Source: Planctomycetota bacterium (GTDB taxonomy: Bacteria; Planctomycetota; UBA1135; UBA2386). Taken from it: a DNA stretch of 64,000 nt. Positions 5,316-51,912 of this stretch are shown piece by piece. The position numbers were made by a program, and so were the translations under genes. The number at the start of each line of letters is the position of its first letter. The stretch's first letter is position 1. The stretch is taken from positions 5,792,001-5,856,000 of the forward strand of contig OZ245838.1 in the NCBI GenBank assembly GCA_965228735.1, given 5' to 3'. The notes beneath the pieces are model-generated. The model was given only the letters and a program-made list of their open reading frames with translations, was not told the DNA's origin and did no database searches.

Positions 5316-7202
5316 ATGCGCCGTTCTCTCCTTCCGCTCGCCGTCTCGCTCGCCCTGGCGTCATTGACCGCGCAGGAGCCGTTGCCGAAGAGCGCGGGGT
5401 TCGGCGCGGTCTACCATGACGTCGAACTCGACGTGGCGACCGGCAACCCGCTGCACCTCGGGGTCGCGGTCGATGCGGCGACGGGGCGGATCTACGTGTC
5501 CGCGACGGGCGCCGGTGGCGCGCCGCCGCACCTGATCTACGAGTTCGACGCGACCGGCGCACCGCTCTCGCAGTTCCAGCAGCCAGCGGTGCACGACGCG
5601 AGCCCGTTCGGCATGCGCGATCTCGCGTTCGACGGCGCGAGTCTCATCGGCGGCAGCGAGGTCGGCATCTCGGTCATCACGCCGACCGGTCAGCTCGGCA
5701 ATCAGGTGCTCGCCGCGAACGGTCCGCAGCCGGTGACGCAGCCGATCACGGGGCCCGTGCTCGCGCAGCTCGCGGTCGTTCGCGCGATCGCGTTCGACCC
5801 CGCGGGGAACGGCGGCAACGGTTCGCTGCTCGTCGCCGACTTCAGCTCGCCGATCTTCGAGATCGATCTCGCCGGGAACGTGCTCGCGACGTTCGCCAAC
5901 CAGGGTTGGTCGGCCTACGGCCTGACGCTCGACCCGACGACCGGCAACGTCTGGGTCTTCGCCGGGCCCGGCGGGCAGATCGAGGAGCTCGACCGCGCGA
6001 CGATGACGCCGACCGGGCGACGCCTCGCGCCCGTGCTCGATGGCGCGGCGACGAGTCCCGGTGGCCTCGCGCTCGCGAGTCCGGTCGCTGGTCATCACGA
6101 GCCGTGGCCGAACGAGGCCGCGTTCGTGCACGTCGTCCAGGGCGCGACGGACCACCTCGGCGTGCAACGCGTGCACCTGTGGCCCGGCGTCCCCGGCTGG
6201 GACGAGCTGCAACTCCGCGTCGGCAGCAACTCCGGTCCGCGCACCGATCGCAGGGCTACGTTCTGGGTCGGTGACGTGCTCGACTTCGAACCGTTCGACC
6301 CGACGGGGCTGCGGAACGGACAGCCCGTCTGGATCGTGTTCAACGTCTACAACGACGCCAACCGCAACGGCACGACCGACCTGAGCTTCCTGCTCCCCGG
6401 CACGGGCATCCTCGCCGAGCACCGCTCGATCAACGCGGTGAGCGTGCCGGCGTCCGGCACCGCGCTCATCACGACGGGCGCCGTCGGCCAGGTGTCGTCG
6501 TGGCAGCTGCCGCCGGCGATCCCGCTCGTCGATCGCGACCTGTTCCGCATGCAGGCGCTCTACATCGAGCCGCAGAGCCCGCAGGCGCAGATCGCGTCGA
6601 CCAACGAGGCGCTCTGGCAGGCGGTCGCCGGGGAGCGCGGGATCGTCGTCGAAGCCAACGGGCCGACGAGCTTCAACGGCGGCGCGGCCCCGCCGTTCTG
6701 GCGCGTGCGGAGCGACCTGACGCACGGCCACGGCGCGATCACCGCGGTCGAGATCTCGACGATCGGCGCCGTGCCGCCCGCCGCACTGCAGCAGTTCGAC
6801 GTCGATCAGAACAGCATGACGGACCGCTTCGACGGCGGGAACTCGACGCAGCCGGGGTTCCGCGGCACCTACCGGAACGGCAGCGACGTGACCTGCGGGC
6901 TCGACTACCAGGCGGCCGCGGTCTACGTGGCCCCGTTCCACGGTGCCGGCGAGAGCGCGGGCGTGCGGTTCACCTCGCCGCCGGATCCCGCCGGCTACGT
7001 CGCGGACCTGAACTTCTCGTTCGCCGCCTTCGGCTCCGGCAAGACGTTCGAGTTCGATTGCGACACCGACGGCGGTGCGGCGAGCGGCGCCGATCACGCC
7101 GGCATGGTGATCCGCGTCACGACGGTCAACTCGGGGATTCTGACGGGGATGCTGGCGGTCGATCCGACGGTCCCGGGCCGCGCCGTCGTCTGGTTCCCGT
7201 AG
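5316..7202 (+). CDS. secreted protein with beta-propeller-like N-terminal region
   Basis: Signal peptide MRRSLLPLAVSLALASLTAQ; blade-like repeats (GVAVDAATGRIYV, DLAFDG, AIAFDP, GLTLDPTTGNVWV). Confidence 0.7.
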   Translation: MRRSLLPLAVSLALASLTAQEPLPKSAGFGAVYHDVELDVATGNPLHLGVAVDAATGRIYVSATGAGGAPPHLIYEFDATGAPLSQFQQPAVHDASPFGMRDLAFDGASLIGGSEVGISVITPTGQLGNQVLAANGPQPVTQPITGPVLAQLAVVRAIAFDPAGNGGNGSLLVADFSSPIFEIDLAGNVLATFANQGWSAYGLTLDPTTGNVWVFAGPGGQIEELDRATMTPTGRRLAPVLDGAATSPGGLALASPVAGHHEPWPNEAAFVHVVQGATDHLGVQRVHLWPGVPGWDELQLRVGSNSGPRTDRRATFWVGDVLDFEPFDPTGLRNGQPVWIVFNVYNDANRNGTTDLSFLLPGTGILAEHRSINAVSVPASGTALITTGAVGQVSSWQLPPAIPLVDRDLFRMQALYIEPQSPQAQIASTNEALWQAVAGERGIVVEANGPTSFNGGAAPPFWRVRSDLTHGHGAITAVEISTIGAVPPAALQQFDVDQNSMTDRFDGGNSTQPGFRGTYRNGSDVTCGLDYQAAAVYVAPFHGAGESAGVRFTSPPDPAGYVADLNFSFAAFGSGKTFEFDCDTDGGAASGADHAGMVIRVTTVNSGILTGMLAVDPTVPGRAVVWFP

Positions 7203-13705: not shown

Positions 13706-13781
13706 CGGCGGCAATGGCGGTGAGCGCCGGCGACGGCGTCGTCTTGCATCCCCTTCCCGGCGAAGCGCTATGATCGACCCC

Positions 13782-14706
13782 ATGGAGGCAGCATTTCGGG
13801 CAACCGCGGCTGGAGTTCTGCTGGCAAGCATGACGGCGGCGCAGGGCCTGCAGTTCGCGTCGGAGATCGTCACCCCGAACAGCACCCGGGCGTGTGGTGG
13901 GGGCGGCAGCTGCCTGGTGCATCCAGTCGGGCCGGTCGGGTTTCCGGTCTTCTACTACGAGAGCAGCAGCGGTCTCGGGACGCTTGCGCTCGATCGCGTT
14001 GACGGCCTGTTTTGGTCGCGAGCATCAGCTGCGAGCTATCAGCATGCCGCCGGCGGCGAGTCCGAAGTGTTGACCACCTTGACCTCGGCGCTTCCCGCGC
14101 GCGTGCAGCTGCTCGTCACGCACGTCTATTCGCCGGGCCAGCTCGCGTTCGCCGCTCATCATGTGGAAGCCAGCATCGACATTGGCAACGACGGCGCGGT
14201 CGAGCTCATGGAGCCAGAACTCCTCGGTGCCGACGACGTCCTTCGGCGTGCATGTGGACCAACGGGGAACGGGCGTACTCTGGAGCAACTACAGCGGCGG
14301 GTTCGCGATCCATGCGGCCCCGTCTTCCCTGCTCGAACTCGACTTCGTCGACCCTGTGCGGGAGCCTGCGTACGGTCCGAGTTGCGTTGGTGAGCTCGGT
14401 TGCCAGCACGGCAGTGCGCCCTTCGAGCGCGTGTTCGTCGCATCGTTCCCGGGTGACACCACGTTGGCATGGCTGATGGGCGGCACCCAGCAGTGGCACG
14501 TGCAGTTTCCGAACTTCTACTGCCCGTTGCTCGTCGAGCCGCAGTTCATCCTCGGGGTGCCACTGGTCGACGGCCCGAACGGCCGCAAGTTCGTCGACTT
14601 CGAGGCCACGTTTCCCGCCGTTCCGGGGCTGACGTTCTATGCGCAGGGCATCGCGATCCGTGGCGGCACGTTCATCGGCACGAACGGCGTCGTGATCCAG
14701 ACATAG
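13782..14706 (+). pseudogene. secreted protein gene split by a frameshift near 14205-14212 (paralog-like to 50869-51912)
   Basis: One frame gives a signal peptide and ...ASIDIGNDGAVEL; the protein-like continuation WSQNSS...YGPSC...TNGVVIQT is in the +1 frame. Confidence 0.7.
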
Positions 14707-34956: not shown

Positions 34957-36531
34957 ATGCACCCGAGAACCAGCATCCACCGCACCTCCGTCACGTCGAT
35001 CCTCGCCGTTGCACTCGTCACGGCCGCCGGCTGCAGCAGCGGCGGTGGCGGGGACAGCACGCCGCCCGCCCCGACCCCGACGCTCGCGTTCGGCGCGCCG
35101 ACGATCACGCCGACCGGCGGCGCCGGTGGTGGTCGGAACGCGCTGACGGATCTCAACGGCGATGGCGTCATCGACTTCGTGGTGGTGAACGGACCGCTCG
35201 CGAACGTGTCGGTCCTCGCGGGTCAGCCCGATGGCAAGGTGGGGGTCGGCGCGACGGTGCCGGCACCGCAGCTCGTCGCGGCGACGGCGTTCGCCGACGT
35301 CGACGGCGATCGGATCGTCGACCTCATCGCTGCGAGCGGCGCGCTCGCCGAGGCCGTGTTCGCGAAGGGTCGTGGCGACGGCACGTTCGAAGCGGGGGCC
35401 GCGATCACGTTGCCGTGGGCGGTGAACGAACTGGCGGTCGCCGACTGGAACCGCGACGGCAACGCCGACCTGCTCGCGGCCAGCGCGGATGCGGGCGAGG
35501 TCGCGCTGCTCCGAGGCAATGGCGCCGGCGTGTTCGGCGGCGCCGTCATCGCGAGTCTGCCCTACGTGCCCACGCAGATGGTCATCGCCGACATGAACCG
35601 CGACACGCTGCCCGACGTGATCGTGACCGGCGTCGGCGCGGTCTCGATCGAGGTGCTGCGGAACGACGGTGTCGGTGGATTCCTGCCGGCCGTGAGCACG
35701 CCGGTCAGCGGCCGGGCCGGCACGTTCGTGTGCTGCGATCTCGATCGCGACACGCTGCCCGACCTCGTCGCGCTCGACGGCAGCGGCCTCGCCGTGACCG
35801 TGTATCGCGGCGTGTTCGGCGCGAGCTTCGTCGAAGGGATGCGGCTCGGGATCGATCAGACCGCGGTCACGGGCCTCGCGCTCGGTGACCTGGACGGCGA
35901 CGGCGTGCTCGACCTTGCGGCGGCGGCGGGGACGCGCGTTCTCGTGGCCTACGGGACGGACCTCGCGGAGTTCACCGGCGTCGAAGAGGCGTGGTCCGGG
36001 GCGGAGCCGATCAGCTCGGTGGCCGTCGTCGACTTCGCCGGCACGGGTTTCGCGGACATCGTCGCGGTCGTCGGCGGTGATCGCGTCGCGCAGCTCAGCA
36101 ACCCGCGGTTGATGCCGGTCGGGCTCGCGGGCTACGGCGTCGGCACCCCGGACTGTCGCGGTCGGATCGGCATGTGGGCGAACGGCGTGCCGCAGATCGG
36201 CAACGCCGACTTCGCCTACACCGCGACGAACGCGCCGGCGGATGCGCTCGGCGTGTTCATGCAGGGTGGCCCGGCCGACGTTCTGGGCAGCAACACGCTC
36301 GGCAACGGCGTGCTGTTCCACATCGGGTTCGACCTGTTGATCACGCGGCTGGTCTTCAGCGACCAGCTCGGCAACGCCTACATCGCGGATCCGCTGCCCG
36401 CCGAGGCGGGGCTCGTCGGTCTGCCGATCCACACGCAGACGCTGTGGTTGACCGACCTGGCGACCACGTGCACGACCGCGGCGACCAACCTCGCGAGCTC
36501 GCGGGGCATGACGGCCACGATCCAGCAATGA
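34957..36531 (+). CDS. FG-GAP/VCBS repeat lipoprotein with the shared C-terminal domain
   Basis: Lipobox AAGC; DLNGDGVID, DVDGDRIVD, DWNRDGNAD, DMNRDTLPD, DLDRDTLPD, DLDGDGVLD repeats. Confidence 0.88.
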   Translation: MHPRTSIHRTSVTSILAVALVTAAGCSSGGGGDSTPPAPTPTLAFGAPTITPTGGAGGGRNALTDLNGDGVIDFVVVNGPLANVSVLAGQPDGKVGVGATVPAPQLVAATAFADVDGDRIVDLIAASGALAEAVFAKGRGDGTFEAGAAITLPWAVNELAVADWNRDGNADLLAASADAGEVALLRGNGAGVFGGAVIASLPYVPTQMVIADMNRDTLPDVIVTGVGAVSIEVLRNDGVGGFLPAVSTPVSGRAGTFVCCDLDRDTLPDLVALDGSGLAVTVYRGVFGASFVEGMRLGIDQTAVTGLALGDLDGDGVLDLAAAAGTRVLVAYGTDLAEFTGVEEAWSGAEPISSVAVVDFAGTGFADIVAVVGGDRVAQLSNPRLMPVGLAGYGVGTPDCRGRIGMWANGVPQIGNADFAYTATNAPADALGVFMQGGPADVLGSNTLGNGVLFHIGFDLLITRLVFSDQLGNAYIADPLPAEAGLVGLPIHTQTLWLTDLATTCTTAATNLASSRGMTATIQQ

Positions 36532-38011: not shown

Positions 38012-38836
38012 CTACAGCGAGACCGTGAGCCCGAGCTGGAAGCCGTCGATCACGAGGTCGGCGTAGTAGTCGACCATGTCGACGCCGCCGCGCGCCGTGA
38101 GTTCGGAGTAGCGATAGCCCGCGAAGAACGTGACATCCCGCAGCGGGATCGCGTAGCTCGCGCGCAGTTCGAGATCCTGCCCGATGTCGCGATAGTCGCC
38201 GCGCACGCGCAGGTGCGGCGAGATCGCGTACTCGGCCTGGAACGCGAGGTCCTGCCATTCGGCCCGGAAGCGCGCGGCGATCGACAGGTTCTGGCCCGCG
38301 ACCGGCACGTTCTGCCGCCGCGCGAGGTCGTCGGTGAACATCCGCATCGTGAGGTCGCGGTAGGCGAACTCGCCGCCGGCGCCGAAGCGCAGTCGCAGAT
38401 CCTCGTCCTTGTAGGTCGTGGTCTGGTCGATCAGCGGGTGCAGGTAGCTGATGCGCAGCTCGTCCATCTGCGCTTCCATGCGGACGAGGTCGTCCTCGAG
38501 CAGCATGCCCCAGTCGGCGCCGAGGACGCCGTTCTTGGAGGTCTGCATGTCGAGGCGGTAGTAGTCGACGCGCAGCCCGCCGAAGCCGTCGCCGACCGCG
38601 GCGCGGAACCCGACGTCGTCCTCGTGCGTGTCCATGCCGAACAGGGCGAGGCGTTGGTAGGGGTTGCTCTGCACCGGCGCGCCGCCGCCCGGATCGGTCT
38701 CGACCGTCGTCTTGCCGCGCAGCTGGTAGATCGCGTAGTAGGGCGACAGGGTGACGCGCGGTTCTTCGAAGACGGAGGACGCGCAGCCCGACAGAGTCAT
38801 CGCCATGACGGTCAGGCCGAGTGCTGGTCCACGCAT
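38012..38836 (-). CDS. lipoprotein-signal protein with outer-membrane beta-barrel-like pattern
   Basis: Lipobox LSGC; amphipathic strands, AGYRY, ends DGFQLGLTVSL. Confidence 0.65.
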   Translation of the reverse strand: MRGPALGLTVMAMTLSGCASSVFEEPRVTLSPYYAIYQLRGKTTVETDPGGGAPVQSNPYQRLALFGMDTHEDDVGFRAAVGDGFGGLRVDYYRLDMQTSKNGVLGADWGMLLEDDLVRMEAQMDELRISYLHPLIDQTTTYKDEDLRLRFGAGGEFAYRDLTMRMFTDDLARRQNVPVAGQNLSIAARFRAEWQDLAFQAEYAISPHLRVRGDYRDIGQDLELRASYAIPLRDVTFFAGYRYSELTARGGVDMVDYYADLVIDGFQLGLTVSL

Positions 38837-38882
38837 GCCCGAAAGGTAGCCCACGTGCCGGCCGTTTCGTAGGCTCTGGTCG

Positions 38883-50868: not shown

Positions 50869-51912
50869 ATGCGAACCCTCCTCTCCCTCTCCGCCCTCCT
50901 CGTCGCCCCCGCGTTCACGGTCTCCTCCGCGCTCGCCCAGACCACGATCGCGCTGTCCACGGGCGCGCCCGTCGCCGTGATGACGAACGAAGCCGGTGCG
51001 AACGCGACGTTCGACGGCGTCGCGCAGGGCACGGCGATCACGGGGTGGCCCAACAACGTCGCGATCTCGACGAGCCAATACCCGAACGGCAAGTCGCTCT
51101 ACGCGTCGACGAGCATCTACGCGACGCAGCCGTACCAGGGCGGCATCGGGTTCAACTTCTTCGAGCGCGCCGCGGTGCGCGGGGCGCCGGCCGACGTCGC
51201 GGGCACGAGCGCGTCCGCGACCGCGACCGGGGCGACCGTCGCGCCGCACGAAGTGCTCGCGACCTACTCGGCGACCCCGGGCACGGTCGGTGTCATCCGG
51301 GTCTCCTACCAGAACAACCCGGCGCAGGGCGGCGTCGTGGTCGCGACGGTCGACATCGACGACGACGGCACGCTCGAGTTCAACCAGTCGACGGGCGGGG
51401 TCGCGAACATTCCCTACACGTTCGGCCCGAGCGGTCAGGTCACGGTGCGCGTGACGAGCGAGTGTCACATCAACGGCGTCGGCGTCGGTACCCACAACTA
51501 CTGCTGGGCCGACATCTGGGTCGGCTTCCGGCCGGACCTCACGGCGACGTGCACGCTGACGAACTACGGTCAGGGTTGCGGCGGCGTCGCGGCGGTCGGC
51601 AGCGAGCAGATCAACGCCGGCAACCGAACGATCACGATCGCCGGCTCGGGTTGTTTCCCGGGGGACCCGGTGATCGTCGCGAGCGGTTCACAGCAGATCA
51701 ATCTGCCGCTCCTGCTCGGCTGCTCGCTCCTGAGCAACGCCGAGGGCGTCACGCTCGTGACCGCGGATGCCGCCGGTGACGCGAGCGCGAGCTGGGTGAT
51801 CCCGGTGACGGTCATCGGCACGACCTTTGTTCAGATGCTGCCGATCACGACGCAGAATCAGGCACTCGTGATCAGTGCCAGCAACGGCGTCGAGATCGAC
51901 TGCTTCCTGTAG
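50869..51912 (+). CDS. secreted protein with the shared C-terminal domain
   Basis: Signal peptide ending ALAQ; VDIDDDGTLEF; C-terminal YGQGC...SNGVEIDCFL. Confidence 0.8.
   Translation: MRTLLSLSALLVAPAFTVSSALAQTTIALSTGAPVAVMTNEAGANATFDGVAQGTAITGWPNNVAISTSQYPNGKSLYASTSIYATQPYQGGIGFNFFERAAVRGAPADVAGTSASATATGATVAPHEVLATYSATPGTVGVIRVSYQNNPAQGGVVVATVDIDDDGTLEFNQSTGGVANIPYTFGPSGQVTVRVTSECHINGVGVGTHNYCWADIWVGFRPDLTATCTLTNYGQGCGGVAAVGSEQINAGNRTITIAGSGCFPGDPVIVASGSQQINLPLLLGCSLLSNAEGVTLVTADAAGDASASWVIPVTVIGTTFVQMLPITTQNQALVISASNGVEIDCFL

Follow-up and report, generated by a model that had tools for sequence, protein, structure and literature searches.

Among the described systems closest to the one considered here, the T9SS CTD is an Ig-like terminal domain on Sec-exported cargo, with many copies per genome, often a Gln at +1 and a terminal G-x-Y…K motif; its type A (TIGR04183) corresponds to Pfam Por_Secre_tail. 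Dockerins are calcium-binding EF-hand-like pairs of approximately 60 amino acids, and SLH domains are helical repeats which bind wall polymer, occur at either protein end and are retained. The placement of proteins on the envelope of Planctomycetota is poorly known.

A stretch of 64,000 nucleotides (hereafter the window; G000:C1:5792001-5856000) was analysed from a Planctomycetota genome of 7.19 Mb (G000; 69% GC, 93% complete). Where relatives of the window proteins have a taxonomic label, it is in most cases Planctomycetota. A sequence-only reading of the window had proposed that three signal-peptide proteins share a terminal module, that a fourth protein contains part of it internally and that the module is an unnamed surface-display or secretion signal resembling the T9SS CTD or PEP-CTERM.

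Domain copies in the window

The motifs on which this proposal was built were all found at the positions claimed. The three tails start with YGQGC (51565), YGPSC (14371) and YGVGTPDC (36133). Two of them contain G(S/T)QQ (SGSQQ at 51682, GGTQQ at 14479) and CxLL (CSLL at 51721, CPLL at 14521), all three have the conserved Q (TFVQ at 51823, FYAQ at 14635, IHTQ at 36427), and near their ends they have SASNG, GTNG and SSRG, separated from the stop by 7, 5 and 7 residues, respectively. The internal motifs of the fourth protein were likewise present (WQLP at 6501, FRMQAL at 6543 and IASTN at 6591).

The gene with the 51565 tail starts at 50869 and encodes a predicted exported protein of 347 amino acids (50869..51912, forward strand), which consists of a signal peptide ending in SSALA/Q, an all-beta passenger of approximately 200 amino acids with a DIDDDG loop, and the terminal domain. 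This domain (copy 1; 51547..51909, forward strand, 121 amino acids) has a YGxGC start, a GC in its hairpin, the conserved Q and SNG. The 50869 protein has 61 relatives, the named ones being assigned to Planctomycetota or to unlabelled bacteria, and no conservation of the flanks of its gene was seen in 13 related loci. The AF2 model of the full protein (pLDDT 93.8) shows the terminal domain as separate; a Foldseek search with this whole 347-residue model gave TM values of 0.22 at most.

The second tail (copy 2; 14356..14706, forward strand) lies in the downstream frame of a broken gene, the N-terminal part of which (13770..14393, forward strand) encodes a signal peptide ending in MTAA/Q and a DIGNDG passenger. 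A tblastn search with an intact paralogue of 306 amino acids (G000:C1:7161603-7162523) located the change of frame between 14204 and 14230. An assembly error at this position is unlikely, since the same letters occur in near-identical contigs from 4/4 sequencing runs, any of which may be the source of this DNA. The gene at 13770-14706 is thus likely a real pseudogene, and the earlier description of three signal-peptide proteins has to be amended in that this tail is out of frame with its signal peptide.

The third tail (copy 3; 36115..36528, forward strand), which lacks the hairpin Cys, ends a predicted lipoprotein of 524 amino acids (34957..36531, forward strand). Its FG-GAP propeller was correctly recognised from the letters alone (PF13517, E 1.5e-34), as was the presence of a signal, the type of which is that of a lipoprotein (LVTAAGC). 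The fourth protein (5316..7202, forward strand) is a predicted exported protein of 628 amino acids with 66 relatives, composed of a likely propeller (PF22701, E 3.4e-5, under the cut-off), an internal diverged domain copy at about residues 304-431 (6225..6608, forward strand) and a further domain of approximately 190 amino acids.

Two other features were noted separately. A predicted lipoprotein of 264 amino acids with a strong beta-barrel-like pattern is encoded at 38012-38854 of the window (reverse strand) and belongs to a set of several small barrel-like proteins for which G160, a genome from a different class, contains no reciprocal match. Elsewhere in the genome, a 71-codon ORF (G000:C1:1198-1413) occurs identically in at least eight other places and is likely part of an insertion element.

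The window tails are strongly diverged, with 22% and 17% identity to copy 1. No tail retrieved another by phmmer against the 61,526 ORFs of the genome, and 2/6 tail pairs scored above all 500 shuffles (51547/14356 and 51547/6219); for the pair 51547/36115, 381/500 shuffles reached its score. Iteration from the 36133 tail gathered more than 260 ORFs of the genome, with the other two tails joining in one round. A profile was then built from paralogues of the genome, with the window proteins and their closest paralogue held out. With filters off, it matched the 51565, 14371 and 36133 tails at iE 1e-7, 1.9e-3 and 1.5e-6, respectively, and no reversed-ORF decoy was found at E<0.1. With filters on, the 36133 tail alone was recovered, and a column-trimmed version of the profile was weaker (1.7e-5, 0.093 and 9e-4). 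The tail of the copy 1 family aligned with the profile at an hhalign probability of 95.9 (E 5e-9). The three tails therefore align significantly through the held-out profile, and by this sequence evidence a terminal domain is shared among them. The proposed copy in the fourth protein holds at family level and not for the single protein (iE 600; hhalign E 0.09): 11/66 members of its family match the domain profile internally at iE<1e-3, and a profile of the whole family aligns with the domain profile at E 2e-5 against 0.84 for the reversed control.

Predicted fold and conserved residues

AlphaFold2 was run on 80 paralogous copies, and copy 1 was modelled as an all-beta domain of 11 strands (pLDDT 94.6). 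In the model, the domain adopts a generic Ig/FnIII sandwich; its best structural match had a Z of 8.7 and an rmsd of 2.4 over 85 aligned residues, with many ties. Compared with Ig, fibronectin-III and bacterial Ig-like folds (2vsd_A, 6xi3, 1cwv_A), it has the same seven-strand core (Z 8.0-8.7 over 79-90 residues) and differs in an added N-terminal strand and hairpin; identities are 1-17%, and the tied matches reveal no function. None of the 50 structure matches listed was a T9SS CTD, cohesin or TIG structure. Foldseek against PDB gave nothing at E<=1e-3; weak rows to an ML-domain, neocarzinostatin and an ester-bond adhesin were not trusted (TM<=0.44).

No Pfam or NCBIfam match was obtained on the domain in the window proteins or in the 80 copies, nor any match among PDB sequences, in agreement with the earlier statement that no family name could be assigned. 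No description of the domain was found in the literature within reach of the search, which covered a minority of subscription journals; the main text of 10.1101/817700 does not contain the terms 'C-terminal', 'secretion' or 'signal peptide'.

Over 297 copies, the most conserved residues are the Gln (97%), a Pro (93%), Gly residues (81-82%), an S/T (88%) followed by N/D, and two Cys (58% and 70%). The S/T-N-G/A motif near the domain end is conserved. Both Cys are present in 165 copies, neither in 34 and one only in 25 (odds ratio 41), and because the two co-occur, a disulfide between the N-terminal strand and the inserted hairpin is inferred. Hairpin columns 52, 56, 58, 60 and 63 are occupied by large hydrophobic residues in 60-82% of the 297 copies and by charged residues in 0-3%, the hydrophobic residues alternating along the sequence.

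Abundance and carriers within the genome

The domain was found on 330 ORFs of the genome (E<0.01), its end lying within 10 amino acids of the stop in 277 cases, within 25 in 307 and within 40 in 317. Of the 13 copies located farther away, 12 (two of them weak) are near the mature N-terminus and one is internal, in an apparent fusion of a domain-terminated protein and a lipoprotein body. The carriers represent 326 of the 4,629 called genes, or approximately 7%. A signal peptide was predicted for 237/326 carriers compared to 929/3427 other genes of at least 200 amino acids (odds ratio 7) with a strict heuristic, and for 300/326 compared to 1656/3427 with a looser one. An HMM search thus returned what had been predicted of a sorting or anchoring domain, namely many hits that are nearly all C-terminal and mostly on proteins with signal peptides.

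It should be noted that the signal-peptide calls come from an in-house heuristic that considers alternative starts for each gene, prefers Gln at +1 and has a background rate of 27%. Gln follows the predicted signal peptide in 228/235 SPI carriers and 470/780 others, counts which this preference of the heuristic itself favours; the pattern recalls the Q-rule of Bacteroidetes. Glutaminyl cyclase (PF05096) was not found in the genome. Lipoprotein signals are rarer on carriers, with 2/237 signal-bearing carriers compared to 149/929 others.

The passengers fall into 77 clusters among 219. Pfam was searched with 50 of the 59 carriers in loci L001-L020. Matches were obtained for 29 of these carriers, all outside the domain: kelch (11), propellers of other kinds (7), S8 (3), M14 (2), di-haem peroxidase (2), and one each of trypsin, sulfatase, beta-lactamase-like and LamG. 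These propellers, S8, M14 and trypsin peptidases, sulfatase and di-haem peroxidases are kinds of cargo typical of surfaces.

Seven proteins consist of a signal peptide and the domain only, an eighth row being an internal deletion or a mis-parse. Such stand-alone proteins would suit a self-assembling coat or filament subunit, the copies of which bind each other through strand pairing or the hairpin to form a surface layer with interchangeable heads. The low charge of the domain (7.9% D/E/K/R, compared to 14.5% in passengers) points the same way, and a coat would make a partner gene unnecessary, in agreement with the failed partner search described below. However, the copies are 14-30% identical to copy 1, which is low for one common lattice, none of the eight stand-alone rows is known as abundant, and tandem domain repeats were found in one ORF only. 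The coat is regarded as the least probable of the four explanations weighed here.

Distribution among genomes

The profile finds at least 33,634 representatives of 50%-identity clusters; in the top 150 of these the domain is C-terminal in 149 and N-terminal in one. It is present in 66/301 Planctomycetota genomes, including all 17 other genomes of the same order, and its presence is all-or-none by family (for example 6/6, 6/6, 0/16 and 0/17). Five genomes hold one copy each. In the 2.30 Mb read of G160, 31 copies were found, 27 C-terminal and four N-terminal. Atlas neighbours of the domain are commonest in Planctomycetota, and the nearest clusters are unnamed. The suggestion of a lineage-restricted, unnamed module on hundreds of unrelated, predicted exported proteins is supported.

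A tail type of Saltatorellus ferox Poly30 (WP_145194641.1), which is missed by the HMM, aligns with the domain over 108 columns (E 6e-4, probability 28%; reversed control 0.12) and, judged from this alignment, is likely a subtype. Since such tails escape the HMM, the domain counts are lower bounds.

Search for machinery and partner genes

Cohesin families, SLH (PF00395) and dockerin (PF00404) each gave no match in the genome while their controls matched (four in the case of SLH), and PF00404 matched 0/80 domain copies. PorV was not found in this 93%-complete genome, its control in B. thetaiotaomicron being below the cut-off; SprA and TIGR04183 also gave no match in the genome, in searches where no control matched either. 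A single exosortase gene (PF09721) was found at G000:C1:1004369-1005223.

Comparison of G000 with the 2.30 Mb of G160 gave 950 reciprocal best hits, from which divergent genes would escape. Among the shared candidates, 177 signal-bearing and 134 membrane proteins, no specific partner emerged, 78 of them having been assessed by Pfam and the others partly by eye. Genes for a T2SS-type secretin, ATPase, platform and pseudopilins are present in G000 and in G160, the ATPase and platform being recognised by eye. A predicted exported thioredoxin-like/helical-repeat protein without a Pfam match (G000:C1:6992590-6995004, reverse strand) is 50% identical in G160 and lies near domain-bearing genes in both.

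Two unusual clusters were profiled across genomes. The first is a pilin/T2SS-like cluster (G000:C1:1395519-1412829, reverse strand) with a pseudopilin-like gene of 1,709 amino acids lacking a Pfam match; proteins of this kind, of 1,300-2,300 amino acids, occur in 55/80 Planctomycetota genomes searched, namely 35/36 domain-rich, 4/5 single-copy and 16/39 negative genomes. In the second (G000:C1:6769699-6785226, reverse strand), two TPR-secretins flank TPR proteins and an ExbB-ExbD-ExbD set, and the cluster is found in 19/20 domain-rich, 4/4 single-copy and 9/28 negative genomes (E<=1e-60). A short domain-only ORF lies inside it at 6774252-6774800. In the phylogenetic profiling proposed from the window sequence, the domain is thus nested within the distribution of these two clusters, both of which also occur in domain-negative genomes. 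Either cluster may have a role, but no specific link to the domain is seen for the one or the other.

At G000:C1:3598143-3600809 (reverse strand), a divergent peptidase of the C25 (gingipain-like) type is encoded, in which the His and Cys motifs are present and the tail domain is lacking. It was set aside, having neither the length nor the tail of PorU and no reciprocal match in G160. In two domain-poor genomes (G170 and G201), a di-haem peroxidase carries the single domain copy, followed by an extra unnamed domain of 310 amino acids, of which one further copy exists, in G170.

These data bear on the possibility that the domain serves export in the manner of the T9SS CTD. It would then be a folded Ig-like tag which a so far undescribed translocon of the outer membrane recognises, and it would perhaps be cleaved later; the twin TPR-secretin/ExbBD cluster and the giant-pseudopilin T2SS-like cluster are candidates for such a machine. 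The size and fold class would be those of the T9SS CTD, 96% of copies are C-terminal, the cargo is T9SS-like and includes haem proteins that must fold first, and the family-wise distribution, the near-constant presence of the two clusters in domain-rich genomes and the 310-residue tail behind single copies would all be in keeping with it. Against it stand the N-terminal, internal and stand-alone copies, the occurrence of both candidate machines in domain-negative genomes, the failure to find PorV, the single recurrence of the 310-residue tail (in G170), and a sole C25-like peptidase that does not resemble PorU. An export signal is thus considered unlikely, though it ranks second among the explanations.

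A proposed envelope tether as the best explanation

The explanation ranked first, which is given roughly an even chance, is that the domain is a retained, non-covalent envelope-tethering module and not a cleaved tag of the T9SS type. Carriers, with their predicted signal peptides, would be exported by Sec, and the domain would fold and form its disulfide in the periplasm. The separate, predicted Ig-like domain would stay on the protein after export, and its hairpin would bind either to lipid/LPS at a surface or to an envelope protein that is conserved. Any cargo reaching the outside may pass through a general secretin (T2SS-like) channel, with no dedicated T9SS-like translocon.

A retained tether is favoured over a tag read at a free C-terminus by the N-terminal, internal and stand-alone copies and by tail swapping. 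The rarity of lipoprotein signals on carriers, the paired Cys, the charge-poor hydrophobic hairpin and the surface-type cargo also speak for it. Tail swapping was followed in the PF28492 passenger, which is linked to TonB receptors and conserved in G000 and G160. Among 120 relatives in which the tail was traced, 42 carry this domain, 34 likely subtypes of it (27 and 7) and 10 dockerins called by Pfam; the remaining ones, assigned by eye, either end in further dockerin-like segments, have short tails as seen in other phyla, or lack a tail (approximately 11). With one query, in a search without a positive control, the passenger was not found in 20 domain-poor genomes. In G000 a domain-bearing PF28492 protein is the first gene of a TonB-dependent receptor operon (TPR, TonB, ExbD, ExbB, DUF3450; G000:C1:4007090-4019087, reverse strand), which is syntenic in G160.

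In two further proteins of G000, the domain precedes a body which in other proteins is attached to a lipoprotein signal. Dockerin expansions (at least 10 matches) were seen in 4/39 domain-negative and 0/36 domain-rich genomes, kin among these not being independent, and domain-rich genomes have 0-5 dockerin matches each. From these sequence comparisons, the domain appears to take the place that a dockerin or a lipid anchor has in other proteins.

The tail-less relatives indicate that the PF28492 passenger does not always need a tail, as would be expected of a generic accessory Ig domain that was disseminated by domain shuffling, acts as a spacer, stabiliser or glycan-binding module and has no role in localisation. 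A common Ig/FnIII sandwich without a stand-out match is what such a domain would show, and carrier genes are clustered (63 adjacent pairs observed, 23 expected), as duplication would give. On the other hand, there is one copy per protein, nearly always at an end and on a wide range of passenger clusters, it swaps with dockerins, and lipoprotein signals are depleted on its carriers. This explanation is therefore held improbable and is placed third, below the export signal and above the coat.

Some observations also count against the tether. In the 34957 protein the domain occurs together with a lipoprotein signal, the C-terminal bias is equally expected of an export signal, and no specific partner gene was found among the shared genes assessed, nor a cohesin or SLH match in this genome. 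In the earlier reading, the terminal and unnamed nature of the module and its positional and signal-peptide bias have stood, and a strict C-terminal signal has not; of its two parts, anchoring agrees with the data better than a secretion signal does.

A more far-reaching and rather doubtful possibility is that of an undescribed surface-display system in several deep-branching Planctomycetota, including the shape-shifting Saltatorellus, in which the domain would be read by a non-canonical secretin machine and would then hold the cargo on the outer membrane via the disulfide-braced hydrophobic hairpin. The machine would be either the twin secretins, driven by protons through ExbB/ExbD, or a T2SS whose tip pseudopilin has 1,700 residues. 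If true, this would be a functional counterpart of T9SS made of unrelated parts, with the domain carried by approximately 7% of the genes. A position-flexible anchor could double as a display tag. The significance of the domain lies in its scale, since a family of at least 33,634 sequence clusters is without a Pfam, NCBIfam or PDB match. With an HMM of the domain, the likely surface proteome could be marked out in a large section of Planctomycetota, most of it uncultured. As the likely subtype occurs in the cultured Saltatorellus ferox Poly30, the question is open to experiment.

Comparison with known sorting and anchoring systems

The domain belongs to none of the T9SS CTD, PEP-CTERM, dockerin or SLH families. 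It shares with the T9SS CTD a predicted Ig-like nature, a terminal position, many copies per genome, cargo of the same kinds and a frequent Gln at +1. It differs in that no copy matches such families (0/80 at E<=0.1), the G-x-Y…K motif is present in 0/317 tails, a Cys pair and a hairpin insert are present, and the domain can also be N-terminal or internal (13/330 in this genome, 4/31 in G160, and the 5316-7202 family).

With PEP-CTERM/exosortase (PMC1569441), the domain has in common a lineage-patchy C-terminal homology on many unrelated proteins. In contrast, among the 317 tails there was no PEP motif and no TM helix, a basic tail was present in eight and the combination of TM helix and basic tail in none, and the domain is predicted to be folded and soluble. 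SLH and similar non-covalent wall anchors resemble it in occurring at either protein end, whereas the domain is all-beta in the model and the genome is devoid of PF00395 matches.

Type I dockerins (PF00404), known from Phycisphaerae and other Planctomycetota, are likewise small terminal modules on many exported proteins and are found on the same PF28492 passenger. The domain differs from them in its size of 125 amino acids and its all-beta structure, and the dockerin expansions sit in other genomes. By analogy, the domain likely has a function similar to that of dockerins or lipid anchors elsewhere among bacteria.
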